Assembly: GCA_963708075.1 (NCBI GenBank)
Contig: OY970194.1
Location: forward strand, 6,336,001 to 6,400,000
Length of the DNA stretch: 64,000 nt
From: Sedimentisphaerales bacterium
GTDB lineage: Bacteria > Planctomycetota > Phycisphaerae > Sedimentisphaerales > Anaerobacaceae
Reading direction: 5' to 3'
How positions within the stretch are numbered: the stretch's first letter is position 1; the number at the start of each line of letters is the position of its first letter. Shown here one piece after another: positions 26,634 through 39,515 of the stretch. The notes beneath the pieces are model-generated. The model did not search any database and was not told the DNA's origin. It saw only the letters and a program-made list of their open reading frames with translations. The translations under genes and the position numbers were made by a program.

Positions 26634-26981
26634 TCACCGCATTAGGTGCTCGTCGTGGGGATCGCAGGGACCCTGGCGCGAGGGGAATAAGATCGATTTG
26701 CCGCAGGTCTTGATCCAGGTCCAGTGCAGAATGAGGTGGACGAGGATCAGAGAGATGAACACGAGAGCCAGGGTGAAGTGAATGTCGCCCCAGTCGTGTC
26801 GGCCGAGACCGAGCAGCTCTTTGACCTCACCGGGGTCGCGGCCGCCGCGAAAGCCGTGACCCTGCCCGCCCCCTGAGCCCGGCGGCAGCACCCATCTCAT
26901 AATCGTCCCCGTCGCCGCTAGCGAGAGCAGATTCAGAAAGCTGATCGTATCCAGGATGAGATTCCATGTCGTGCGTTTCAT
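26634..26981 (-). CDS. DUF4405-like membrane protein with conserved His residues
   Basis: TG..LPPG..LGLGRHDWGDIH..LILVHLILHWTWI. Confidence 0.75.
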   Translation of the reverse strand: MKRTTWNLILDTISFLNLLSLAATGTIMRWVLPPGSGGGQGHGFRGGRDPGEVKELLGLGRHDWGDIHFTLALVFISLILVHLILHWTWIKTCGKSILFPSRQGPCDPHDEHLMR

Positions 26982-27079
26982 CCGTGTGCCTCGCAATTGT
27001 ATCATCTTCGTTTGCATCCTCGCAGGCTACGGCCGGTCCTTCTATCTTACGCGTTTCGGGAGATTCTTCAATTCCTGCT

Positions 27080-27104
27080 TGAACGCGTCCGCCGAAACGC
27101 CATC
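27080..27104 (+). promoter_or_regulatory. Candidate ECF promoter TGAAC-N16-CATC
   Basis: Upstream of the cassette 1 sigma; ECF-like spacing. Confidence 0.4.
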
Positions 27105-27148
27105 CTTATAGGTAGAAGACAAGATCTTGTCAGCAGTGAGGGCGTCAG

Positions 27149-27688
27149 ATGGATTTCGAGGGCCAGTTGCAGGATGTGGTCCGCCGTTGCCAGCGTGGCG
27201 AGCGGGCGGCGTTTGAGGCGATCTTCCGGCAGTTTCAGCCGAGGCTTCGATACTATCTTCGACGCCTGGACACCGGCGGCGACCATATCGATGACACGCT
27301 CCAGGATATCTGGGTCAAAGTTGTTCGCCGGATCGGCTCCCTGCGCGATTCCACGGCCTTCGTAGCCTGGCTCTACACCATTGCTCGCAATGAGGTGTAT
27401 GGCCGGGCAAAGGCCAGGGACCCGTTCGTGGGACTGACGGATGAGCATCTGGAATTGGTCGCGGATGATCATGAGCCCGTGTTCGGCGATGAAGAGGCGG
27501 CCCGCATCCATGTGGCCCTTGGGAGACTCCCGCCGGCGCATCGCGAAATCCTGACGCTGCATTTTCTCGAAGATCTCCCGCCCAAGCAGATCGCCGGGAT
27601 CCTCGGCCTCCGTGCCGGCACTGTCAGGTCCCGCATCTATTACGCCAAACAGGCTCTTCGTAAAGAACTGGAGAAAGATAATGGATAA
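27149..27688 (+). CDS. ECF sigma factor (cassette 1)
   Basis: DDTLQDIWVKV..FVAWLYTIARN; LPPAHREILTLHF..GTVRSRIYYAK. Confidence 0.92.
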   Translation: MDFEGQLQDVVRRCQRGERAAFEAIFRQFQPRLRYYLRRLDTGGDHIDDTLQDIWVKVVRRIGSLRDSTAFVAWLYTIARNEVYGRAKARDPFVGLTDEHLELVADDHEPVFGDEEAARIHVALGRLPPAHREILTLHFLEDLPPKQIAGILGLRAGTVRSRIYYAKQALRKELEKDNG

Positions 27689-29481
27689 TCGTGAAATCCT
27701 TCGAGACAAGCTGCTGCGTGCCGATGGCATCGATCCATCGGCATCGCCCGAGACCGAGATGGTCCGGTTCCGGCAGCTTCTGGACGGAACGAAATCGGTC
27801 GAATTGTCATGGAGAAAAGCCATGAAGACTCCCATAATGAAGTTTGCAGTTGCCGCTGGCGTCGTGCTGGCCGTCCTGCTCGGGATGTATTTTCTCGGCG
27901 GGACCTCCAGCACCACCTGGGCGGCCGTGCTGAATAAAGTGATGGACTTCGATACCTGTGTATCTCGCAGCCGCGACGTCGACACGACTGGCCCCCGGCC
28001 CGATGGTTTCGAATTTGCGTCCGAACACACCGCCACGATCTATTACTCGGAACAATACGGACGGTACTCCGAAGGCCACAAGAACGGTGAACTCTTCTCC
28101 CGCAGCTACACGCTGCTCCAGGACAACGAGTTTGTGTTCATCTGCTACCCGCTCAAGATCTACAAGCGGGCTCCGCTCACCGAGGAGCAGATTCGCGAGT
28201 TCCACGAAAAGAGTCCGAAACAGATCATCGCGAAGATCCTCGAACACGACTACACCGAGCTCGGGGACTCGACGATGGAAGGAAGGCGCGTGCGGGGGCT
28301 TGAGCTGCGCGATCCCAATGCGCTTTCCGACGGTCAGTCGCTAGCGCCGCTGCTCGATGATTTCAGCGCCCGGTTTTGGATCGACGTGGACACGCAGTTG
28401 CCCGTGTGGGTGGAGGTCAGCTTCGTGCCCAAGGGGTCGAAGATGCGGCACACCGGGGTCTGGGACCAGTTCCAATGGGGCGTGGCGCTGGACCCGAACC
28501 TGTTCAAACCGACGGTCCCCGCTGACTTCGAGGCCGATGCCATGGGGGACGGGCCGCGTCCTGATTCCGCCCCCAAGACACAGCCGGCGGAAGCCTTTGC
28601 CGCCAACACGCAGGCTGAGCCATACTTGCGCGACTTCGATCATCTCAAGCTCCCGGACCTGAGCAAGCTGGTGCTCCTCGGCGTGGACGTGAACATCCCC
28701 AGGGACAATGTGCGCCTCCTCTCCCACAGCCAGATCTGGGAGTTCCAGGACAAGGTCATGGCCACGTGGCCGGCCTTCGAGCAGGTCCAGGCCCAACTGC
28801 ACCGCGAGCTCCAGGAGAAACTCGGCATTGAACAGCTTGGCGTCGATGACCTTGTCACGACGGGAATCGCCCTGCGCGAGCGATTTTGGGAATTAGCCGG
28901 GTGTTTCTCCGAGAACCTCCTATCCTTACGCCTATGCTGCTCGGATCGTGACGGAAATGGCGCACGAGAAAGCCCCGGACAACCTCGCCGTGATGGACCA
29001 GTTCGTCGAGTCGATCACCACCTATGCCGTGACACGGACCTGGCATGAGGACGAGAGCCAGGCGGTGAGGAATCCCATCTACTCCGGCCTGTTGACCGAC
29101 CTTCGCCTGGCCCAGTTTGAGCAGATCAAGAGCGAAGTCGCCCGGGGACACGTCCCCACGTGGAAGGACTTCGTCCGCATGCACGATCTGGTCATACTGC
29201 TCAACGCGAGTCGCAAGGATTACAGGCAGGCGACACAGGTCGCCCAGTGGCTGATCGAGCAGGCGCCCACCGCAGGCTGGACGTACTACCTCGCCTCGCT
29301 CAAGGAAATGGAGCAGGCCTTCTCAAAAGGAGAGAGCTATAAGAGCGGCCTCTTCATGCACGGCTCGGACGTCTTCCCCGCGGAGTACCAGTACTCGCGT
29401 CGTCTCTTCTCGTTCCAAGGCCCGCGCCAGCGAGCCGAAACGCTCTGGCCGGTACACCTGCGCCACCTCAAAGGCTGGTAG
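27681..29481 (+). CDS. Anti-sigma-like protein, cassette 1: short cytoplasmic N-terminus, TM/signal, LolA-like domain, unknown C-terminal domain (apparent frameshift near 28914)
   Basis: Overlaps the sigma stop; ORFs 27612..29048 and 28948..29481 together align with the intact paralogs at 34581 and 37446. Confidence 0.8.
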
Positions 29482-29511
29482 CCACCGACGTCGTCTCCTA
29501 TCACAACCGAA

Positions 29512-29541
29512 AAAGGGCCGGACCCACACGTCCGGCCCTTT
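29512..29541. terminator. Intrinsic terminator-like hairpin
   Basis: AAAGGGCCGGAC-ccacac-GTCCGGCCCTTT. Confidence 0.7.
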
Positions 29542-29976
29542 GCCTGTTCCACCTCACATCGATGCGCGAAACCGGCAGTTCGAGGACCTCCGGCCGCAAC
29601 CGGCGGCACGTAAACCCGTGACACGTATGGATTTACAGTTGGCAATCTGCCTCCGAACCGAACCTGGTATCATTGGAGATTTATACACGAAATTACGTAT
29701 TTCTACGGATTGACAAAATCAGTCGAACGTGGGAGTCTGGTCCATGTAGCCAGGCAAGTGTTCGCCTCATTCGAGGTTGGTTCAGGCAGGCAGTGACACG
29801 ATTACGATCCAGATCCAGTGCACTGCGCCGGGTGGATTCCGGCGCGCAGCATGGCTCGCCTGCTCGGGAACACTTAACGGGAAAGGAGGTGACAGCGCGA
29901 TCCGATATTCACGAGACGTCGTTCCACGAACGGATTCGAATCAGGGATGTCGAAACGAGAAGGGAGTCGGTGAATT

Positions 29977-31314
29977 ATGAAGTACAGGATGGAAGGCAGG
30001 AGATTTTGGGCCGGGATAGCATTCGCGGTGATTTTGACGTTGATCTTGGGACCCGTGTTGCAGGCTCGCCCGGATCGGGCATTTTCCGTGGCAATCAGTC
30101 CGACGACGGCCACCGTCGGTGAGACCAAACCCTACACGATCACCATCACGAACGAGGGCTCCGGCGGCGGGGCCTCAGCAAACCTCGGCTCAGCCACAAT
30201 CCAGGTCCCGGCCGGCTTCACGGTGGTGGTGCCGCCCGCATTGAGCGTGACGACCTCTCCCACCAAGTCGTGGACGGCTGCCCTGAATGGGGCGGGCACG
30301 GAGATCCTGCTCTGCGGTGACCAGGGCAACGACACATTCTCCGGCGGCGACTATGTGGCCGTCACATTCACCGCCACAGCGCCAGGTACACCGGGCGTCT
30401 GCGAGTGGACGACTACGCTGCGAAAGAACACGAACTGGCATGGTCCCACGCCGGCCTTGGTGGGCACGCAACCAGTAGTGACCGTGCAGGACGATGTGAC
30501 GCCCCCTGATCCCGAGGGCCCAGCATCGATCTGCGGCGCCAAATTCTATGATACGGACACTGACGGTGTTTGGGAGGAAGGCGAACCCGGGATTGAGGGC
30601 TGGAAGATCCATCTGGTCGGCGACACCGTCAACGCGTATGCCTTCACCAATAGCGACGGCGAGTTCTGCTTCCCGGACCTCGAAGCGGGCAGTTATGTCG
30701 CCAGTGAAGTCTTTCCGCTGATGCCTCCGACGTGGATACCGACCACGGAGACATCGTTCAGCACGACAGTGGACGATTGCGAGATCGATGTTGGTGACTT
30801 TGGCAACGTCTGCCTGGGCGCCGGCGGCGGGCACACGCTCGGCTACTGGTCGAACAAGAACGGCCATGCGAGCATGACAACATACGGCTTGTCCTCTGCA
30901 TGGTCGGCACTCGCGGATCTGAACCTGGTCAACGGCAGTGGGGCACCGTTCAATCCGGCCGGATACCCAGCGTTCCGGACCTGGCTGCTCAGTGCGACGG
31001 CCACGAACATGGCCTACATGCTCTCGGCCCAGCTCGCGGCGATGAAACTCAACGTCCTCACCGAATTCGTGGATGGCGATGCCCTGGTCTACGCGCCGGG
31101 CGTGCCGGGTACAAATCCGGCCGGATTCATCTCCGTGAACGCTCTGATCACCGCAGCGAACACCAGCTTGGGAGCAGACGGCTACACGCCCGCTGATGAC
31201 CCGAATCGCAGCGTGCAGGAGAGCATCAAGAACGCACTCGACCAGGCGAACAATAACCAGAACTTCGTCAGCCCAGCGCCCTGTTTGCCTATAGTATATA
31301 TCGTAATACTGTAA
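29977..31314 (+). CDS. Secreted Thr/Gly-rich surface protein with SdrD-B/Cna-B-like domain
   Basis: Signal peptide; ICGAKFYDTDTDGVWEEGEPGIEGWKI..TNSDGEFCF..L.AGSY..SE; GHTLGYWSN. Confidence 0.7.
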   Translation: MKYRMEGRRFWAGIAFAVILTLILGPVLQARPDRAFSVAISPTTATVGETKPYTITITNEGSGGGASANLGSATIQVPAGFTVVVPPALSVTTSPTKSWTAALNGAGTEILLCGDQGNDTFSGGDYVAVTFTATAPGTPGVCEWTTTLRKNTNWHGPTPALVGTQPVVTVQDDVTPPDPEGPASICGAKFYDTDTDGVWEEGEPGIEGWKIHLVGDTVNAYAFTNSDGEFCFPDLEAGSYVASEVFPLMPPTWIPTTETSFSTTVDDCEIDVGDFGNVCLGAGGGHTLGYWSNKNGHASMTTYGLSSAWSALADLNLVNGSGAPFNPAGYPAFRTWLLSATATNMAYMLSAQLAAMKLNVLTEFVDGDALVYAPGVPGTNPAGFISVNALITAANTSLGADGYTPADDPNRSVQESIKNALDQANNNQNFVSPAPCLPIVYIVIL

Positions 31315-31392
31315 AGGCGCAGCGCGGCTGTTAAGTATTGCTCAGGACAACGTAGGCCGGGACACTGTCCGGCCGCGGCTCCGAAATATCGT

Positions 31393-31435
31393 CATTCGGA
31401 AGGCAGAGGCTCACATGCGCTCTGCCTTCCGAATG
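31393..31435. terminator. Perfect 16-bp hairpin downstream of the surface-protein gene
   Basis: CATTCGGAAGGCAGAG-11nt-CTCTGCCTTCCGAATG; no U-tract. Confidence 0.45.
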
Positions 31436-31763
31436 CGCTGTCATACACCCGATTCATGGAAGCTCTGATCCATCTGGATCCTGGCGGCCGGAAAGATCCG
31501 CCCACGATCATAATGTGCACCCCTTGAGACAAGAATTCCTGAAAACTCATTGCACCACTTGAACAAAAGGATAGCATGAGACATTGTCCCGGCAGGGATT
31601 CGTGCGCCGTTTGCTGAAGGAGCTGCCAGACGCAGGCTCCACGCCTTTTTCGTCATGATACATCTGACCGCTGAGTAGCAGGACACACAGTCATGTTGCG
31701 GCTCACGTCGATGTCGCGACAACTTAGTGGATATCGTGGAAGTCTGGCTTGAAAGGAGCATGT

Positions 31764-32504
31764 ATGCCTCTGAACAAACGGTTGGCAGCGGAGACGATAG
31801 GTACATTCTGGCTCGTGTTTGGCGGCTGCGGCAGCGCCGTGCTCGCAGCAGCATTCCCCGAGGTGGGTATCGGCCTGCTCGGCGTAGCCCTGGCATTCGG
31901 ATTGACCGTGCTGACGATGGCCTTTGCCATCGGCCACATCTCCGGGTGCCATCTCAACCCGGCGGTGACGCTGGGTCTGGCCACGGGCCGGCGCTTCCCG
32001 TGGAACGAGGTGATTCCCTACATGATCGCACAGGTTATCGGTGCAGCGGTGGGGGCCTTGGTGCTGTACGTGATCGCCAGCGGCAAGGAGGGGTTCAGCC
32101 TGAGCGGAGGCTTCGCCGCAAACGGTTACGGCCTGCACTCGCCCGGCGGCTATACGCTGACGGCCGCCCTTGTGACCGAGGTCGTTCTGACCTTCATGTT
32201 CCTGATGATCATCCTGGGAGCGACGGATTCGCGGGCTCCGGCCGGCTTTGCGCCGATCGCCATCGGTCTGGGATTGACGCTGATCCACCTCATCGGCATC
32301 CCGGTGACGAACCTGTCGGTGAACCCGGCCCGCAGCACCGGACCGGCCTTGTTCGTAGGCGGATGGGCGATTGCACAACTGTGGCTGTTCTGGCTGGCTC
32401 CGCTGCTCGGGGCGTTCCTGGCCGGGCTGGCCTATCCGGCAGTTGCCGGTGAGGGCGTCACGCTCCCCGCAAAAGTTCCATCCCCGGTGCTGACTGCGGA
32501 CTAG
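31764..32504 (+). CDS. aqpZ: Aquaporin Z
   Basis: [41 protein letters not shown]. Confidence 0.95.
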
Positions 32505-33029
32505 GCCACCCATCGACAGCGGCATGCGCTACGAACATAGTCCTGGAGGGATAACGGCCTCGGTTGATCGTCCTGATTCCTCCGACGGCGACGACTGCAG
32601 CGAAGTTGACGTACCATGAATCGATTCGGCCGAAAGGACCCCTGAGAAACGCCGGAACCCTCTGCGTTTTCGGGACCGAGAACGCAGGAAGAGGTCGGCA
32701 TGGGGGTTCTTCAGCCGAATCACCGGTCAAGCTCTGATCTCACAAGTGCCGAGCCGGCCTCTCACCAGTAAGGTGGGCTCCGCACGTCCAGTTCCCTCCT
32801 CATGTTGCCCTCTCAATACCCTGCATCGGTAACCCTCCAACCATTTCTTGGGCCGGCGGATTCTCCCCGGATTTCCATCCACATCCACCCACTGTCAATC
32901 GCCATATAAGAGGACAGAATGTGCCGTGGTCCTGTGCTCTGGCCACGTCATGCGCTGTGCGGAGAAATGAACGTGACACCGTCTCATCCTCAGCAGGCCC
33001 TGGAGGACCATTGTTGGGTATCCACCGGA

Positions 33030-33776
33030 ATGAATCGCATAACCCTTCGCAACCAGTTCGACTCTCTGGCGTCAGTCCCGGCGTCTGCAGAGCCGGCCCA
33101 GAAGCGTCATCGAGGCCAGCAATTCGAGGGACTGTTGGAGATGCTGCTTGAAGCGGACGGCTTGTCACCTCATATCCACGTCAGACCTGATGGCGAGGAG
33201 ATAGACGGGTCATTCCTGCTGAACGATCGTGCGTTCCTCCTGGAGGCGAAGTGGCACGCCGCCCCTTTGCCGGCCTCCACAATCTATCAGTTCAAGTGCA
33301 AGGTGGATGGAAAACTCGTTGGCACCCTGGGGGTGTTCATCTCCGTCTCCGGTTTCAGTACGGACGCTGTGGAGGCTCTGATCGCCGGCAAAACCATGAA
33401 CGTGGTCCTCTTCGACAGACGGGATGTCGAAGCGGCCATCGATAGACCGAATGGCTTCAGAACCGTCCTCCTTGCCAAGTTGCGGATGGCCGCTGAAGAA
33501 GGCACGGTCTATTGGCCATTCCGGTCCGTGCTCACAACTCCCAAGTCATCCGAAGTCAGGGTGGTACAAGAGGGGGGGCAAGCAGCACCACACCGCATTG
33601 TTGTCATAGAAGAGGAACACGCCGAGGACGCGATATTGGCGGACCTGATACGAAGAATCATCCGGCACAAGAGTCTTGGGAACGGCGGGCTTGATTCCGG
33701 CGGTGGGTCGCACGGGTCCACGATGTCTGTTCGGCCTGAAGGCCTCTCTCTTCCGCCATCGCCTCCGGCACAGTGA
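33030..33776 (+). CDS. Mrr-like restriction endonuclease domain protein, possibly C-terminally truncated
   Basis: RGQQFE..EEIDGSF..FLLEAKW..GVFISVSGFS PD-(D/E)xK pattern. Confidence 0.7.
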   Translation: MNRITLRNQFDSLASVPASAEPAQKRHRGQQFEGLLEMLLEADGLSPHIHVRPDGEEIDGSFLLNDRAFLLEAKWHAAPLPASTIYQFKCKVDGKLVGTLGVFISVSGFSTDAVEALIAGKTMNVVLFDRRDVEAAIDRPNGFRTVLLAKLRMAAEEGTVYWPFRSVLTTPKSSEVRVVQEGGQAAPHRIVVIEEEHAEDAILADLIRRIIRHKSLGNGGLDSGGGSHGSTMSVRPEGLSLPPSPPAQ

Positions 33777-33935
33777 CGGCCAGGTCAAACCGCCGTCGTG
33801 AGGCTATTCCCTCGCTGCCCTACCCGCACGCCGAGATCGCAGGCGGGAGCCCAGGGATGTACCGTGTGACCCCTGGCCCGCCCCTGGGGGATATGCTCCG
33901 GCCCGCAGGGTGCACACGGGCCGGTTGGAGGAGAG

Positions 33936-33961
33936 GTTTACATTCTGCGGGGTGGCGCGTC
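33936..33961 (+). promoter_or_regulatory. Candidate ECF promoter GTTTAC-N16-CGTC
   Basis: Upstream of the cassette 2 sigma. Confidence 0.4.
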
Positions 33962-34035
33962 TTTTCTTAGAGCACAATCGCCGGGCTGCTCGTCTATTGG
34001 CGATTGAACGTTCGATCGGAATCGGCTGTGTGACG

Positions 34036-34578
34036 ATGTTGACACTCGAAGATCGGCTATTGCTGAGACAACTGAACCACGGCAGCAGGCACGCCTTGCG
34101 CCGGGTCTACCTGAAGTACAGGCGCGAGCTGTTCACGATTGGCGTGGCACTCGTCGGCGACAGGGACCTGGCAGAGGACTGCCTGCAGGATGTGTTCGTC
34201 CGCCTGGCGGAGTCGGCCGGCCGGATCGGAGTGGCCGGCAATCTCAAGGCGTATCTGGCTAGTTGCATGGTCAACCGGGCCCGGGACCAGATCCGGCGCA
34301 ACGTAAGGCGGGCCGGCGGGCCGGCGGAGCATCTTGGCTGTCGGGCCTCGGTGCCGAGCCCGCCTCAGCAACTGGTAAACGATGAACGCACGGCGGCGCT
34401 GCTGCATGCGATTGGGCAACTGCCGTACGAGCAGCGGGAGGTTTTCGTGCTGCATGCCCAGGCCGGCCTGTCGTTCCGGGATATCGCAGTGACTCAGGGC
34501 GTGCCCCTGCGGACGACGCACAGCCGCTACAGGTATGCAATCCTGAAACTTCGTGAGCTTCTGCAAGAAGGGATATAG
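34036..34578 (+). CDS. ECF sigma factor (cassette 2)
   Basis: AEDCLQDVFVRL..LKAYL...NRARD; LPYEQREVFVLH..TTHSRYRYA. Confidence 0.92.
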   Translation: MLTLEDRLLLRQLNHGSRHALRRVYLKYRRELFTIGVALVGDRDLAEDCLQDVFVRLAESAGRIGVAGNLKAYLASCMVNRARDQIRRNVRRAGGPAEHLGCRASVPSPPQQLVNDERTAALLHAIGQLPYEQREVFVLHAQAGLSFRDIAVTQGVPLRTTHSRYRYAILKLRELLQEGI

Positions 34579-34580
34579 CC

Positions 34581-36398
34581 ATGAAACGGGCCAAAGAGAT
34601 CGAATCGCTGGCGAAAAGGACGCAGTTCGAGCCGGATGCCTCGGCGGATCAGCGAATCCTGTCTGCGGCAGAAGCGGCATTGGACCGACGAATGGATGTT
34701 TCGCGTGCCGGCGAGGCATGCCTAACAGGGAGGATAACTATGAAGAGTACGATAGCAAAGCTGGCAATCGTCGCGGCGGTGGTCGTGGCTGCGCTGCTGG
34801 GAATTCATTTCTTCGCGGGTACCTCCGGCACAAGCTGGGCGGCCGTGCTGGAGAGAGTGAACGGCTTCGACACATGCGTCTACCGCAGCCGCGAAGTTGA
34901 AACGACAGGCCCCCGGCTCAATGGGTTTGAGTTCGCGACCGAGAATGAATCCAAGAACTACCGCTCCGAAATCTACGGAACATTCAGCGAGAACTACAAG
35001 AACGGCAAACTCTCCGTGCGGCACTACATGCTTCTCCAGGAGGGACAACATATCTCGATTGGCGGTTACGACAGCGAGCATAAGCTGTGCCTTCGCACGG
35101 CTGTGACTGACAGGAGCCTCCGGGAGTTTCACGACGGCGACCCGCGACGGATGATTGCGAAGATTCTCGCAGGCAATTACGTTGAGATTGGGGAAGACAC
35201 CATCGAGGGCCGGCGCGTCCGGGGCGTCGAACTGCGAGATCCGAACGTCCTCGCCGCTGAAGGCAAGAAGATTCCCCCGCTGGACGATTTCTCTTCGCGG
35301 TTCTGGATCGAGGTCCAGACAGGACTACCGGTGTGGATGGAACTCAGTTTTGTGCCCAAGGATTCGGCACAGCGGACCACGATGATCTGGGACCAGTTCG
35401 AGTGGGGCGTGCCTCTGGAGGCGAGCCTGTTCGAGCCGGAGATTCCGGCCGATGCTGAGGTTGTGGATGATGATGGCAAGGTACCGGATTCGACGCCTAT
35501 GACCGATGTCGCAGAAGCATTTGCGCAGCAGACCCAGGCTGAGCCGTTCCTCGGCGAGTTCGACCATCTTCCGCTGCCGGACGTGAGCGGCCTGACCCTG
35601 CTCGGTGTCGATACGAGCGCCCCGAAACCACAGGTGCGGCTGCTCGGCTCGGATGAGATTCGGGTGGCTCAGGACGCCTGCGTGGCGAAATGGCCGCCAT
35701 ACGAGCAGGTGCAGGCTCAACTGCGCCAGGAACTCCAAGCCAAACTCGACATCAACGCAAAAGATGTGGACGGGCTCATGACAACAGGGATTGCCTTGCG
35801 CAACCGGTTCTGGGAGATGGGCGGTACCCTGTCCGATGTGGCATACCCGTACATCTATGCGGCCCGGCTGGCGGACGAGATTGCCCATGAGAAGGCCCCC
35901 GACAACCCGGCGGTCACAGACCAACTGGTCGAATCGATCATAGCCTACGAAGTGATGTACTACTGGCAACTCCCGCAGACCGACGGACCCTCAAGACGAA
36001 ATCCTGTTTACCGTGGGCTGATAGCCGATCTGCGCCGGCAGCAGTACGAGCAGATCAAGACCCGTGTCGGCGAGGGCTACACGCCGACCTGGAGGGACTT
36101 CGTACGATGTTGCGATTTCGCCTATCTGTGGAGCCGGACGGACCGTGACGCGGCGCTGGAAGCGACACGCCTGCTCATCGACCTGGCCCCGAAGACCGGC
36201 TGGACCTTTTATCTCGATGATCTCAGGCGTGCAGAAGAAAGGCTTGTCGGCGGCGAGAGCTGCTACGTATCCACGTTCATTGGCGGCCATCAGGGCGTGT
36301 ACCTCGATCAATACAGTCGCCGGCTGTGGTCCTTCCAGGGACCGCAGGAGTACAGGCAGCAGCGGACAGCGACGCACCTGAAAGATCTCAAGAAGTGA
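34581..36398 (+). CDS. Anti-sigma-like protein, cassette 2
   Basis: 605 aa; TM segment, RFWIEVQTGLPVW..FEWGVPLEASLFEPEIP (LolA-like end), conserved C-terminal domain. Confidence 0.85.
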   Translation: MKRAKEIESLAKRTQFEPDASADQRILSAAEAALDRRMDVSRAGEACLTGRITMKSTIAKLAIVAAVVVAALLGIHFFAGTSGTSWAAVLERVNGFDTCVYRSREVETTGPRLNGFEFATENESKNYRSEIYGTFSENYKNGKLSVRHYMLLQEGQHISIGGYDSEHKLCLRTAVTDRSLREFHDGDPRRMIAKILAGNYVEIGEDTIEGRRVRGVELRDPNVLAAEGKKIPPLDDFSSRFWIEVQTGLPVWMELSFVPKDSAQRTTMIWDQFEWGVPLEASLFEPEIPADAEVVDDDGKVPDSTPMTDVAEAFAQQTQAEPFLGEFDHLPLPDVSGLTLLGVDTSAPKPQVRLLGSDEIRVAQDACVAKWPPYEQVQAQLRQELQAKLDINAKDVDGLMTTGIALRNRFWEMGGTLSDVAYPYIYAARLADEIAHEKAPDNPAVTDQLVESIIAYEVMYYWQLPQTDGPSRRNPVYRGLIADLRRQQYEQIKTRVGEGYTPTWRDFVRCCDFAYLWSRTDRDAALEATRLLIDLAPKTGWTFYLDDLRRAEERLVGGESCYVSTFIGGHQGVYLDQYSRRLWSFQGPQEYRQQRTATHLKDLKK

Positions 36399-36441
36399 TG
36401 ACCTCCTTCTCGGCCTTCGGGCCGAAGGGAAACCATGCACA

Positions 36442-36473
36442 GGCCGGGCTGCCCACGCGCCCGGCCCTTTTTT
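36442..36473 (+). terminator. Intrinsic terminator
   Basis: GGCCGGGC-loop-GCCCGGCC followed by CTTTTTT. Confidence 0.75.
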
Positions 36474-36554
36474 GTTCGTGGACCTCCAAGCACAGCGGTC
36501 AGGGTGTGGTCGGAATTCGGTGGCGGCGTGTAGCCGCCGTGTGCGGACTGCGCC

Positions 36555-36767
36555 TCTTTCGTCCCTTACGGGACTGGCTTTTGTCCTCGGCCCCGGTTCC
36601 CAGCGATGAATCGCTGGGCTATTCTCTATCGCCCTGCGGGCTTGGACTTCGCTCCAGTCCTCTTGCGTCGGCCCGTCCGCCCCACGGGGGCGATCGACAC
36701 TAGCCCACCGTTTCAACGGTGGGTACGATAGTCAATCCTATCTCAAAGCCCCGTAGGGGCGAAAGAA
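36555..36767. repeat. Inverted pair of ~88-bp three-hairpin REP-like units
   Basis: 36555..36642 (reverse) and 36679..36767 share GCCC..GGGCGAT, TAGCCCA(palindrome)TGGG and CCCGTA.GGG.CGAAAGA. Confidence 0.7.
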
Positions 36768-36925
36768 GACTGGGCTGCGCTCTTGTGTCGGGTGGAATCC
36801 GAATCCGCCACCGAAGGCCGACCGCACCCAGCGGTCATCTGATCCGGTTTTGAATAGACGCAAACACGTCCTTGGATTGTTATATTGGTGAAAAGACGTC
36901 TTTTCGAGATCGGACTTGCGAGCCC

Positions 36926-37456
36926 ATGGAAGACAGGTTGCTGGTATTGCGGTGCAAGCGGGGCAGCGCCGGGGCGATGACGCGGATCTATGAGAAGTAC
37001 CGCAAGGATCTGCTGATTCTGGCGATAGCCCTGCTCAACGACAAGGCGGCGGCCGAGGACATCGTGCACGATGTCTTCGTCAGCTTCGTGGAGAGTCTTG
37101 CCCAATTCCGACTCACGGGCAGTCTACGTGCGTACCTGATGACCTGCACGGCCAACCGGGCTCGCAATCACAACAAGACAAAACAAAGGCCGGATTCACC
37201 GCAGGAAGTCATCTGTGAAGAGCAACCCGTCGAGCGTCTCGTGAGCAACGAGCGGCTTGCGAGGCTGGCTGCGGCGATGGAACAACTGCCCTACGAGCAG
37301 AGAGAGATTCTGATGCTCCACTCGTACGGCGGCCTGACTCTGCGGGCCATCGCCAAAACCTCCGGACTGCCGGCGAATACGGTCATGAGCCGCTATCGCT
37401 ACGGCATCGACAAGCTGCGGCATCTGCTCAATGGAGAGTGTGACCATGAAACCTGA
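36926..37456 (+). CDS. ECF sigma factor (cassette 3)
   Basis: AEDIVHDVFVSF..LRAYL...NRARN; LPYEQREILMLH..NTVMSRYRYG. Confidence 0.92.
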   Translation: MEDRLLVLRCKRGSAGAMTRIYEKYRKDLLILAIALLNDKAAAEDIVHDVFVSFVESLAQFRLTGSLRAYLMTCTANRARNHNKTKQRPDSPQEVICEEQPVERLVSNERLARLAAAMEQLPYEQREILMLHSYGGLTLRAIAKTSGLPANTVMSRYRYGIDKLRHLLNGECDHET

Positions 37457-39266
37457 GGATGCACTCAATCGCGTCTTTCACGAGTTGGACGTGCGCGTGG
37501 ACCCTCGCGTGGATGAGCGAATCCTGCAGGACACGTTGCACCGTCTCAAGGAATCGACAGAGACACCCCCGGCCGACTCTCGGCCGATGCGATGGAGAAC
37601 AGTCATGAAATACCCACTGGCAAAACTTGCGATCGCGGCGGCGGTCATCGTCACCTCGCTGCTTGGCATCCACTTCTTCAGCAGGACCTCCGGCACAAGC
37701 TGGGCGGCCGTGCTGGACAAGGTGAACGGCTTCGACACCTGCGTCTATCGTGTCCGCGAAGTGGAGACGACCGGACCCAGGCCCGACGGCTTCGAATTTG
37801 CGACCGAGGCGGAACACAAGCACTATCGCTCGGAGACATATGGCTGCTTCCGCGAGACCTACAAGAAGGGCAAAGCTACCGAGTGGCAGTATTTGCTCCT
37901 GCAGGAGAAGCAGCACGTCGCCATCTACAGCGAGATGTCCTTGTGTCTTCGCAGCCCCATCGATGAGAAAATCCTTCACACGTTCTACACGGAAGACCCC
38001 GCGAAGCTCGTGGCGCAGATCCTCGGCGGGTCTTACGTGGAGATCGGCAGCAATGTCATCGAGGGTAAACCGGTGCGAGGTGTCGAATTGCGCGACCCGA
38101 ATGTGCTGGCGCCCGAGGGAGAAAAAGTGCCTCCGGTGGCTGATTTTGCTCTGCGGTTCTGGATCGATGTCCGGACGGAGCTGCCGGTGTGGATGGAGAT
38201 GAGCATTGTCCTCGAGGGCTCGCAGGTGCGTCAGACGACGATCTGGGATCAATTCCAGTGGGGCGTGCCCCTGGAGGCAAGCCTGTTCAAGCCGGAGATC
38301 CCGGCTGATTACGAGGTCGTGGATCGTGACGGCACTCACAAGGCACCGGATACAACCCCCAAGACCACCGTGGAGGAAGCCTTTGCCCAACAGACCCAGG
38401 CCGAACCCTACCTGGGCGACTTTGATGCTCTGCCTCTGCCGGACGTGAGCAGCCTGTCCCTGCTTGGCACCGATCCGAAGGCTCCCAAGCCGCAGGTGCG
38501 TCTGCTCGGTGGGAAGGAGATCCAAAGGGCCCTCGACACCTGTGTTGGGAAATGGCCTCCTTACGAGCAGGCAAAGGCCCAACTGCGCGAGGAGCTCCAG
38601 AACAAGCTCAACATCGAAGCCATGGATGTGAACGGGCTTGTGACGACAGCGATCGTGCTGCGGAACCTGTTCTGGAAGCTTGGCGGGTGCCTGTCCGACA
38701 CGGCGTATCCCTACATTTATGGCGCCAGGCTCCTCGACGAAATCGCCCATGAGAAGGCCCCGGACAATCCGGCCGTCATCGACCAGCTTCTCGAATCCAT
38801 CGGGTCTTACGAAGTGCTGTACTACGCGGACGACCCGCCCCAGGACCCTGTCCGGCGAAATCCCATCTATGCGGGGGTCGTCGCCGATCTCTGCTATGAG
38901 CAGTGGGCCTTGTTGAAGGCCAGAATGAACGGGAATTACACGCCGACCTGGAAGGACTTCGTGCGCTGCAGCGATATCGCGACGGCCAGTCGCATCCGAA
39001 AGGACCCGGCCACGAACCTGGAGGTGATTCGCCTGCTGATCGAGCAGGCCCCGAAGGCCGGCTGGACCACTTACCTTGACGATCTGAAGCGCGGCGAGCA
39101 AAGGCTGCTTGCCGGTGAGGTCTACAAGGGCCCGGGGGCCTTCATGGGCGGAATCGGGGACATCAACCTGGAGCAATACGCCCGTCGCCTGTGGTCCTTC
39201 CAGGGGCCGCAGGAATACAGGGATCAGCGAACCCCGCTGCACCTGAGGCACCTCAAGGGCTGGTAG
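37446..39266 (+). CDS. Anti-sigma-like protein, cassette 3
   Basis: Overlaps the sigma 3' end; same architecture as cassettes 1 and 2; ends HLRHLKGW. Confidence 0.85.
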   Translation: MKPEDALNRVFHELDVRVDPRVDERILQDTLHRLKESTETPPADSRPMRWRTVMKYPLAKLAIAAAVIVTSLLGIHFFSRTSGTSWAAVLDKVNGFDTCVYRVREVETTGPRPDGFEFATEAEHKHYRSETYGCFRETYKKGKATEWQYLLLQEKQHVAIYSEMSLCLRSPIDEKILHTFYTEDPAKLVAQILGGSYVEIGSNVIEGKPVRGVELRDPNVLAPEGEKVPPVADFALRFWIDVRTELPVWMEMSIVLEGSQVRQTTIWDQFQWGVPLEASLFKPEIPADYEVVDRDGTHKAPDTTPKTTVEEAFAQQTQAEPYLGDFDALPLPDVSSLSLLGTDPKAPKPQVRLLGGKEIQRALDTCVGKWPPYEQAKAQLREELQNKLNIEAMDVNGLVTTAIVLRNLFWKLGGCLSDTAYPYIYGARLLDEIAHEKAPDNPAVIDQLLESIGSYEVLYYADDPPQDPVRRNPIYAGVVADLCYEQWALLKARMNGNYTPTWKDFVRCSDIATASRIRKDPATNLEVIRLLIEQAPKAGWTTYLDDLKRGEQRLLAGEVYKGPGAFMGGIGDINLEQYARRLWSFQGPQEYRDQRTPLHLRHLKGW

Positions 39267-39300
39267 AGAACTTCCCTCCTTCAATCGGGATGAAGCAAAC

Positions 39301-39328
39301 CGGGGCGGTCTGTGCAAGGCCGCCCCGG
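39301..39328 (+). terminator. GC-rich hairpin, copy 1 of a direct repeat
   Basis: CGGGGCGGTCTGTGCAAGGCCGCCCCGG. Confidence 0.6.
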
Positions 39329-39434
39329 TGTAGTTCCGTGGTCGCGGTGAATTCCTCAACCCCTCAACTTAGCCTCCAGATGTTGCGGCGGAACGCGGGA
39401 AAACAGGCTGATTTGCGACGGAATTGGCCTTTCG

Positions 39435-39461
39435 GGTAACGTCAAGCGAGGGTAGAACGTC
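39435..39461 (+). promoter_or_regulatory. Candidate ECF promoter GGTAAC-N17-CGTC
   Basis: AAC...CGTC ECF pattern about 55 nt upstream of the permease start. Confidence 0.45.
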
Positions 39462-39515
39462 TATTTAAGGAGACCACTGAATTCAGTCGGGTACGTTCAG
39501 CTTTGAGGGGATACG

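Follow-up and report, generated by a model that had tools for sequence, protein, structure and literature searches.

An internal start signal conserved in planctomycete anti-sigma genes probably directs synthesis of a second, sensor-only protein

A 64,000-nt stretch of DNA from a Sedimentisphaerales bacterium (GenBank assembly GCA_963708075.1, contig OY970194.1, positions 6,336,001 to 6,400,000 of the forward strand), here called the window, carries three genes for extracytoplasmic function (ECF) sigma factors. Each is followed directly on its 3′ side by a long open reading frame (ORF) for an anti-sigma protein, whose start is coupled to the sigma stop. The source genome is a single contig of 7.5 Mb with 60% GC, and close homologs of the anti-sigma proteins are labelled Planctomycetota in their sources, where they belong to metagenome-assembled genomes of Phycisphaerae type or of Pirellulales. 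The element of interest is a second potential translation start within each anti-sigma ORF, comprising a Shine-Dalgarno (SD) sequence, GGAG, and an ATG that is in frame with the long ORF and lies 47 to 53 codons past the long-form start. Positions below are those of the window.

27149..27688, + strand: ECF sigma factor gene 1 (Pfam Sigma70_r2 and Sigma70_r4_2; stop TAA at 27686-27688)
27681..29048, + strand: anti-sigma gene 1, long ORF by translation (8-nt overlap with sigma gene 1)
27811-27814 (GGAG), 7-nt spacer, 27822-27824 (ATG), + strand: internal start signal 1, codons TGG AGA (W-R)
34033..34578, + strand: ECF sigma factor gene 2 (Pfam Sigma70_r2 and r4_2; stop TAG at 34576-34578)
34581..36398, + strand: anti-sigma gene 2, long ORF of 605 aa (2-nt gap between the stop of sigma gene 2 and the ATG)
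34729-34732 (GGAG), 7-nt spacer, 34740-34742 (ATG), + strand: internal start signal 2, codons GGG AGG (G-R)
36926..37456, + strand: ECF sigma factor gene 3 (Pfam Sigma70_r2 and r4_2; stop TGA at 37454-37456)
37446..39266, + strand: anti-sigma gene 3, long ORF of 606 aa (11-nt overlap with sigma gene 3)
37594-37597 (GGAG), 7-nt spacer, 37605-37607 (ATG), + strand: internal start signal 3, codons TGG AGA (W-R)

The original prediction, made from the letters of the window, was that each gene has GGAG exactly 7 nt before an in-frame ATG, and this was confirmed at all three sites (27811/27822, 34729/34740, and 37594/37605). The 16S rRNA of the genome ends at its 3′ side in the canonical anti-SD (...CACCTCCTTTCT), to which the internal SD is complementary, and the spacer has the length that is modal for SD sequences in this genome. 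When the first ATGs of 4,281 long ORFs were surveyed, GGAG occurred at 4-10 nt in 18% of cases, with its peak at 7 nt (4.72%), compared with 0.19% at spacing 7 before 29,093 in-frame ATGs located deep within ORFs. The three anti-sigma proteins of the window are paralogs (44-50% identity to the first), and therefore the three sites are not independent of each other. The similarity among them sets in at the internal Met, whereas the preceding ~50 residues are far more divergent.

A search of the same genome with anti-sigma gene 2 as the query yielded 13 full or partial paralogs that share 21-30% identity with the window genes. All 13 reside behind an ECF sigma-like ORF whose stop is overlapped or abutted by the start of the long form, and these coupled starts are located 47-98 codons 5′ of the internal Met. 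Every one of the 13 reads NGGAGN, six further bases, and ATG, with the two residues encoded at the GGAG being W-R (TGG AGA), G-R (GGG AGA or GGG AGG), and once G-S (GGG AGT). Mean column identity in the alignment of the 13 proteins is 24%, and only four columns are invariant, namely the first Met, the internal Met, and two Ala residues. The internal SD is also better conserved in these paralogs than the SD of the long-form start, given that GGAG is present within 7-9 nt upstream of 5 of the 13 long-form starts compared with 13 of 13 internal sites. In one of the paralogs (L014:547-1944; genome position of the internal ATG, 6233530), the N-terminal part comprises 98 codons and contains an HxxxCxxC motif, seen by eye, that resembles zinc-binding anti-sigma domains; this part is joined to the W-R-x-x-M module, which suggests that different sigma-binding heads may be mounted on the same start-plus-membrane module. 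Another (L011/L012, at genome positions 7451347-7452676) is split, such that a 151-residue ORF ends early and the homology continues in a second ORF.

Four more distant sigma-linked genes of this genome have the same signal with R-R or G-R (AGG AGA or GGG AGA). Among further family members, one carries GGAG-7-GTG, one has the ATG without GGAG, and one has neither, its W-R being spelled TGG CGG and followed by GTG. We also surveyed the neighbours of 67 sigma-like ORFs in the genome, for which 11 had no downstream ORF, 25 had one in which no membrane helix was found, and 31 had one with a helix. These last comprised 9 cases with Met and GGAG, 5 with Met but without GGAG, and 17 with no Met nearby, where all counts are lower bounds because the strict membrane-helix rule missed several known paralogs. 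By this survey, other anti-sigma types in the genome do not have the internal start feature.

We then assessed conservation beyond the source genome. With up to five candidates scored per genome, a profile search across 401 genomes of the phylum gave matches in 19, including this one. A metagenome scan with a 46-row alignment provided 49 loci, and a scan of a genome collection with a single protein provided 4. The loci held 67 ORFs matching the family profile. The site falls outside six of them, a seventh could not be mapped, and 54 unique contexts were left after deduplication. There were 48 contexts with ATG at the aligned column, and 45 of these have GGAG exactly 7 nt 5′. The pool that includes the contexts from the source genome comprises 65 unique ATG contexts, and 62 of them have GGAG at 7 nt (17/17 in the own genome and 45/48 elsewhere); for pooling, one context was moved by a codon and another, with too little upstream DNA, was left out. 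The spacing between SD and ATG, which the original prediction expected to be fixed, is thus nearly so.

Codon choice within the 65 contexts separates constraint on the RNA from constraint on the protein. The codon at position -4 relative to the internal Met is TGG in 33 contexts, GGG in 15, AGG in 13, CGG in 1, and another codon in 3, and the codon at -3 is AGA in 52, AGG in 5, AGT in 5, AGC in 2, and CGA in 1. At the GGAG site, each of the four NGG codons and each of the four AGN codons is therefore represented, with almost nothing besides. Arg at -3 is encoded by AGA or AGG in 57 of 58 cases, compared with 13% genome-wide (AGA 4.6% and AGG 8.6%, together 13.2%), and Gly at -4 is GGG in 15 of 16 cases, where the genome uses GGG for 17.7% of its Gly codons. 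The residue pairs vary (W-R, G-R, R-R, R-S, W-S, and G-S) while the letters of GGAG remain constant, with ten NGG-AGN codon pairs encoding five residue pairs in addition to the G-S (GGG AGT) of the own genome. Consequently, GGAG is conserved at the nucleotide level beyond what the protein requires. The earlier argument that a Trp-to-Gly change leaving the SD intact points to selection on the RNA, and the expectation that Arg at this position would depart from normal CGN usage, both hold across this larger set. The signal can also shift its register or its start codon, as revealed by the relative L020, in which GGAG lies in a different codon register at spacing 8 (GAA GGA GTC), and by the paralog with GGAG-7-GTG.

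At the protein level, Met occupies the column in 79 of 103 database homologs. It is thus not freely substituted, and its losses are concentrated in one clade. For the 69 homologs that have enough upstream sequence, the residue pair is compatible with NGG-AGN in 65. Ten of the 103 database entries begin at the internal Met, some of them derived from truncated contigs.

The mRNA around the internal start is open and weakly folded. As a control, we encoded the same peptides with synonymous codons drawn from the genome's own usage (100 resamples, 42-nt window). The natural window at the ATG has a GC fraction of 0.432 versus 0.556±0.010 for the resampled sequences and a minimum free energy of -5.2 versus -8.4±0.7 kcal/mol, and none of the 100 resamples reached the observed value. 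The test was conducted at seven offsets, and no such bias was seen 30 or 60 codons downstream of the ATG. Likewise, among 40-nt windows from -140 to +300, the weakest folding and the lowest GC (0.42) occur at +5 from the ATG, and the probability of being unpaired peaks at 0.58 for positions 0 to +10 compared with 0.39 overall. AAA and AAG together account for the second codon in 36 of the 65 contexts, and Arg at codon +2 is encoded 16 times by AGA or AGG and never by CGN.

To describe what the two starts would encode, we use anti-sigma gene 3 as the example, the orthologs of which share the same M-K-P-E-D beginning. Its parts are listed below.

37446..37604, + strand: N-terminal 53 codons, present in the long form only; predicted sigma-binding part (pN/pS 0.37-0.57 in 4 ortholog pairs; complex model)
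37614..37676, + strand: hydrophobic segment, residues 57-77 (AlphaFold2 (AF2) helix 57-77, low confidence); may anchor the long form and serve the short form as a signal-peptide-like core
37698..37706, + strand: S-W-A, a signal-peptidase-type -3/-1 motif (equivalents at 27915-27923 and 34833-34841)
37680..38333, + strand: predicted periplasmic LolA/LprG/RseB-fold domain, residues 79-296 (Foldseek; VIA-align)
38439..39125, + strand: predicted C-terminal helical domain resembling tetratricopeptide repeats (TPR), residues 332-560 (AF2 predicted local distance difference test (pLDDT) mostly >85; weak TPR-type matches)

As far as sequence can tell, the ~50 codons upstream of the internal Met are truly coding. 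The ratio of nonsynonymous to synonymous change (pN/pS) in this segment is 0.24-0.57 in 11 ortholog pairs, compared with 0.18-0.48 downstream. It was proposed earlier that these codons are open and that their start is coupled to the sigma gene; the segment is indeed open in every locus examined, and coupling was seen for 13 of 13 paralogs. Among loci whose ORF covers the site, no stop separates the upstream and downstream parts, although no dedicated search for stand-alone forms was made.

A complex model of the cognate sigma factor with residues 1-53 gave an ipSAE value of 0.67, whereas the best of three controls gave 0.01. Of 157 solved complexes, 116 attained the score mark that it passes, as did 2 of 215 mismatched pairs. 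At least 83% of contacts are shared between the model runs, and the pLDDT of the partner is at least 63. The predicted contacts involve partner residues 3-38 and sigma residues 10-59 and 110-168, such that every predicted sigma contact precedes the internal Met. Because the model was run on alignments that we supplied, and because solved sigma/anti-sigma complexes exist, this result may reflect likeness to those complexes rather than binding. With this proviso, the N-terminal segment is predicted to be the sigma-binding part, and the proposal that a short isoform would be without it is consistent with a coding upstream segment that holds all of the model-predicted contacts.

The portion after the internal Met resembles an exported protein. 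The AF2 model of gene 3 has a pLDDT of 82.9, with residues 1-81 below 50. Residues 79-296 are predicted to form an unclosed beta-barrel with an N-terminal helix, which is the fold of the LolA/RseB/MucB superfamily. Foldseek matches for this region have a probability of 1.0 and E values ranging from 7e-9 to 1e-5 (4mxt, E 7e-9; RseB 3m4w, E 3e-6). VIA-align gave a Z score of 14.0 and a root-mean-square deviation of 3.7-4.4 over 180-182 residues aligned to LprF, LprG, and a LolA-like protein, and lower Z scores for RseB (2v42, Z 8.9) and MucB (6jau, Z 8.2; model residues 79-295). Membership by sequence profile in the LolA, RseB, or MucB families was not detected in Pfam or NCBIfam, and one source names a homolog 'outer membrane lipoprotein-sorting protein'. 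More generally, except for one subthreshold match of P0003 to DUF2635 (E 0.07), the three anti-sigma proteins match no Pfam family at E values up to 0.1 and have only subthreshold matches in NCBIfam, and neither scan matched zf-HC2, RskA, or a similar curated anti-sigma domain. For the C-terminal domain, the TPR-type matches have Z scores of ~8, which is not distinctive for helical repeats.

Residue 84 of the model aligns to residue 1 of the mature LolA chains 8orn_C and 6f3z_B, and the S/T-W-A motif is located directly before this residue. The -1 residue of the motif is Ala in 98 and Ser in 5 of 103 homologs and Ala in 13 of 13 paralogs, and the -3 residue is Ala, Val, Thr, or Ser in 100 of 103 homologs. 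The short form thus follows the rule of small residues at -3 and -1 for a Sec signal peptide. From the fold, the alignment of residue 84, and the S/T-W-A motif, the protein from the internal Met onward appears to have the layout of an exported LolA-like precursor, onto the front of which a sigma-binding peptide has been grafted.

We consider it probable that the internal signal is a translation start maintained by selection and that each gene yields a long anti-sigma protein together with a short, sensor-only form. In this proposal, the first start overlaps or abuts the sigma stop, and the long protein would be made by ribosomes coming off the sigma gene. Its first ~50 residues would bind sigma and would be followed by the membrane helix, the LolA/RseB-fold domain, and the TPR-like domain, so that a protein made in step with sigma would hold sigma at the membrane. 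The second start has the appearance of a complete initiation region, with GGAG and ATG separated by a 7-nt spacer, a second codon rich in A, and open, AT-rich mRNA around the ATG. It would be preserved by selection on the RNA, and independent ribosome loading there would produce the short protein. This product would begin with a positively charged tip, followed by a hydrophobic segment and then an A-x-A motif, like an exported LolA-like precursor, and would be without any predicted sigma contact. The short form would most likely be anchored in the membrane, or would otherwise be freed by signal peptidase, and might tune signalling as a sensor-only partner or competitor. Its role could be that of a partner, of a competitor for ligand or for a protease, or of a released periplasmic protein. 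That the second start fires, and what the short form does, we infer from sequence. The computational tests that we ran on the long and short isoforms put forward in the original prediction came out in its favour, whereas the existence of two products is for now read from sequence signals.

Several findings weigh against this proposal. The energy of SD:anti-SD pairing is moderate (median -7.7 kcal/mol), and 12% of random deep-ATG windows pair as strongly when spacing is ignored; since the pairing is unexceptional, the argument depends on position and conservation and not on strength. Three of the 65 ATG contexts (L078, L069, and L059) are without GGAG. The signal also fades, as judged by eye, in ten more distant phylum-level homologs, for which three have GGAG at 7 nt, one has it at 8 nt, two have partial SD-like runs, two have ATG without an SD, and two are without the Met. 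Most of the 24 homologs that are without the Met belong to a single clade, and in the five DNA contexts available for it the ATG is replaced by TGG (4) or TTG (1), while GGGAGA is still present in four of the five. SD-like letters can therefore persist without a start, by inertia or for another reason. Furthermore, synonymous divergence is lower in the N-terminal 46-53 codons than in the next 250 codons for several pairs versus L049-L055 (for example, 0.23 versus 0.58 and 0.16 versus 0.51), which suggests either an extra constraint on the RNA or gene conversion. Ribosomes elongating on the long ORF could occlude the internal site. Lastly, the homologs are kin, and their counts thus overstate the number of independent observations.

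The clade that is without the Met is informative in other respects. The 42 nt surrounding the site average 61% GC in these contexts, compared with 44% where the ATG is present, which indicates that the AT-rich window goes with the ATG whereas the SD-like letters can outlast it. Arg and Lys residues interrupt the hydrophobic segment in this clade, and loss of the start thus accompanies an altered membrane segment. Members such as P0044, P0046, P0047, and P0051, and loci L048, L063, L064, L087, L088, and L097, retain only ~12 uncharged residues in the segment.

A bolder version of the two-product proposal, which we judge unlikely, assigns two roles to the hydrophobic segment. It would serve as an anchor in the long form and as a signal peptide in the short form, where cleavage at the A-x-A motif would set free a soluble periplasmic protein of LolA/RseB type that would guard the sensor of the long form or compete with it. 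In the long form, the A-x-A motif would be the site at which signal peptidase makes a ligand-gated site-1 cut. If this were true, an entire module of the RseA-plus-RseB type would be contained in one reading frame across planctomycete ECF systems. All three window genes encode a hydrophobic core of ~18-20 residues, which is beyond the range of ~7-15 residues that is usual for a cleavable Sec signal peptide, a core of this length being typical of an uncleaved anchor. On this basis, the short form may stay anchored. A parallel for cleavage of the long form is provided by RsiV of Bacillus subtilis, the anti-sigma factor for sigma V, which is described in passages of PMC6066255 as a single-pass protein in which signal peptidase makes the ligand-gated site-1 cut near the membrane helix, with a helix shielding the cut site until ligand binds. 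The layout here is similar to what those passages describe, in that helix 83-94, which directly follows the membrane segment, opens with the A-x-A motif, but the sensor fold is different and there is no match to DUF4179 in Pfam. We regard RsiV-like cleavage of the long form as a lead only.

Each rival to the proposal of a selected second start fails on at least one measured feature. The one that survives best, although we give it little credence, is that GGAG acts as a ribosome pause site, slowing elongation before the membrane segment for the benefit of targeting, with an incidental ATG and a single protein product. The element does always lie directly before the hydrophobic segment, and the retention of GGGAGA without a start codon in four of the five Met-less contexts is what this account would allow. 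However, pausing would require neither an ATG nor a constant spacing of 7 nt, nor would it call for an A-rich second codon or open mRNA, yet all of these are conserved, and a pause at this point precedes synthesis of the membrane segment, such that nothing would be exposed for targeting. Pausing at SD-like sequences is itself disputed.

We assign a lower probability to the idea that the internal ATG is the sole start and that the upstream 47-53 codons are an untranslated leader that is open by chance in a GC-rich genome. Gene callers did choose the internal Met for ten of the 103 entries, and long random open frames are common in such DNA. A genome-wide scan for GGAG-7-start followed by a hydrophobic segment gave 42 sites, and most of these are ordinary starts of signal-peptide genes whose upstream frame is accidentally open, many true signal-peptide starts having at least 40 open codons upstream. 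An open upstream frame is therefore no proof by itself. Nevertheless, a mere leader is difficult to reconcile with the pN/pS values of 0.24-0.57 in 11 pairs, with a frame that is open as far as the sigma-coupled start in 13 of 13 paralogs, with the HxxxCxxC motif in the upstream part of one paralog, or with a sigma-binding model score of 0.67 versus 0.01.

Less probable again is that the signal is a relic of gene fusion, in which a small anti-sigma ORF acquired the gene of an exported LolA-like protein at its 3′ end and the former start of that gene is now functionless and decaying. The part after the internal Met is laid out like a LolA-type precursor, as a fusion would predict, and the ATG or the SD has been lost in one clade and in some distant homologs. 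Yet paralogs with 21-30% protein identity keep the signal exactly, over which divergence a neutral relic would have been erased; moreover, GGAG is preserved by ten different codon pairs, and synonymous sites around the signal are biased. The weakest rival, a W/G-R-x-x-M protein motif at the cytoplasmic face of the membrane helix that resembles a start site by coincidence, gains something from the positive-inside rule, by which positively charged residues are expected before a membrane helix, and from Arg being the commonest residue at -3, but it is already largely refuted by the codon data, because W, G, or R at -4 and R or S at -3 are chemically unlike and yet share NGG and AGN codons, because Arg at -3 uses CGN only once and Gly at -4 is GGG in 15 of 16 cases, and because, in one paralog that has lost GGAG, W-R is spelled TGG CGG and the ATG is replaced by GTG.

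If a selected second start is indeed used, it has precedents outside of anti-sigma genes. In-frame internal starts are established in bacteria, and cheA is one such case. Passages of the 2026 review PMC13515050 list others that give N-terminally shortened proteoforms, including infB/IF2, clpB, safA, rpoS, and a type III secretion sorting-platform protein. The anti-sigma genes are similar to the cases in those passages in having an SD and a start codon within an ORF, and in that the long and short proteins differ by an N-terminal functional part. They differ in that the start is located at the junction of the sigma-binding and the membrane/export segments, that it is found family-wide, and that it is known from sequence alone. 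Our literature search found no description of an internal start in an anti-sigma gene; the passages of PMC13515050 that mention 'sigma' concern only sigma S, and those of PMC3420878 and PMC12772443, considered as candidate precedents, concern other matters. Internal in-frame starts as such are thus already known, whereas a case at the sensor junction of an anti-sigma protein appears to be new, and the sequence evidence for it is strong.

Two families of known proteins bear on the sensor. RseA-RseB of Escherichia coli and MucA-MucB of Pseudomonas likewise combine an ECF anti-sigma factor with a periplasmic LolA-fold protein, but in the genes examined here the predicted LolA-fold domain is within the anti-sigma polypeptide and not encoded by a separate gene. 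The analogy drawn earlier to RseA and RseB encoded in one gene thus stands as far as the predicted fold of the periplasmic domain is concerned, but RseB is not the closest relative by structure, because LprG, LprF, and LolA are better matches (Z 14). Compared with the carriers LolA, LolB, LprG, and LppX, the fold of residues 79-296 and the position of the mature N terminus after a signal-peptidase-type motif both correspond. The domain differs in having a predicted sigma-binding segment fused in front of it and a TPR-like domain following it, and in that it does not belong to these families by sequence.

The usual view of a membrane anti-sigma factor is of one protein in which a sensor is linked to a sigma-binding domain. 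If the second start operates as proposed, it would uncouple the two and constitute a new control point in ECF signalling, because the amount of sensor could be set independently of the amount of the protein that holds sigma. It would also rank with the clearest examples, on comparative evidence, of selection for an internal ribosome-binding site, in which the residues drift and four RNA letters stay. A practical matter is that annotation pipelines call either start, with about one in ten database entries beginning at the internal Met.

We also considered an internal promoter. A scan of 26900-39500 for sigma-70-type promoters identified 2 sites versus 3.3±1.9 expected, with none common to the three genes, and the candidate was rejected because the sites are not above expectation and are not shared. 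One metatranscriptome run contains short contigs with 90-99% likeness to parts of 36900-39300, one of which spans 37451-37602. These contigs represent related strains, and neither transcript ends nor translation can be read from them.

Some observations concern the arrangement of the genes. The 3′ end of anti-sigma gene 1 is broken: the match to genes 2 and 3 stays in frame up to about residue 411, after which it is found in the ORF 28948-29481, which has one TAG inside (region 28900-29481). In the own-genome search, the match to this gene is correspondingly split into residues 47-419 and 411-604, the second part with one TAG. Its internal start signal is intact despite the 3′ frameshift. In two cases, the sigma and anti-sigma parts are found in one ORF, namely in L059 (ORF 149-2309) and in P0034, with 720 and 707 residues, respectively. 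P0034 is listed with Sigma70_r2, and such one-ORF forms represent either a real fusion or a sequencing frameshift. Finally, sigma/anti-sigma pairs occur in tandem arrays. The window has three pairs within 12 kb (27149-39266), and the metagenome contigs L089, L090, and L091 each carry three family ORFs per locus.

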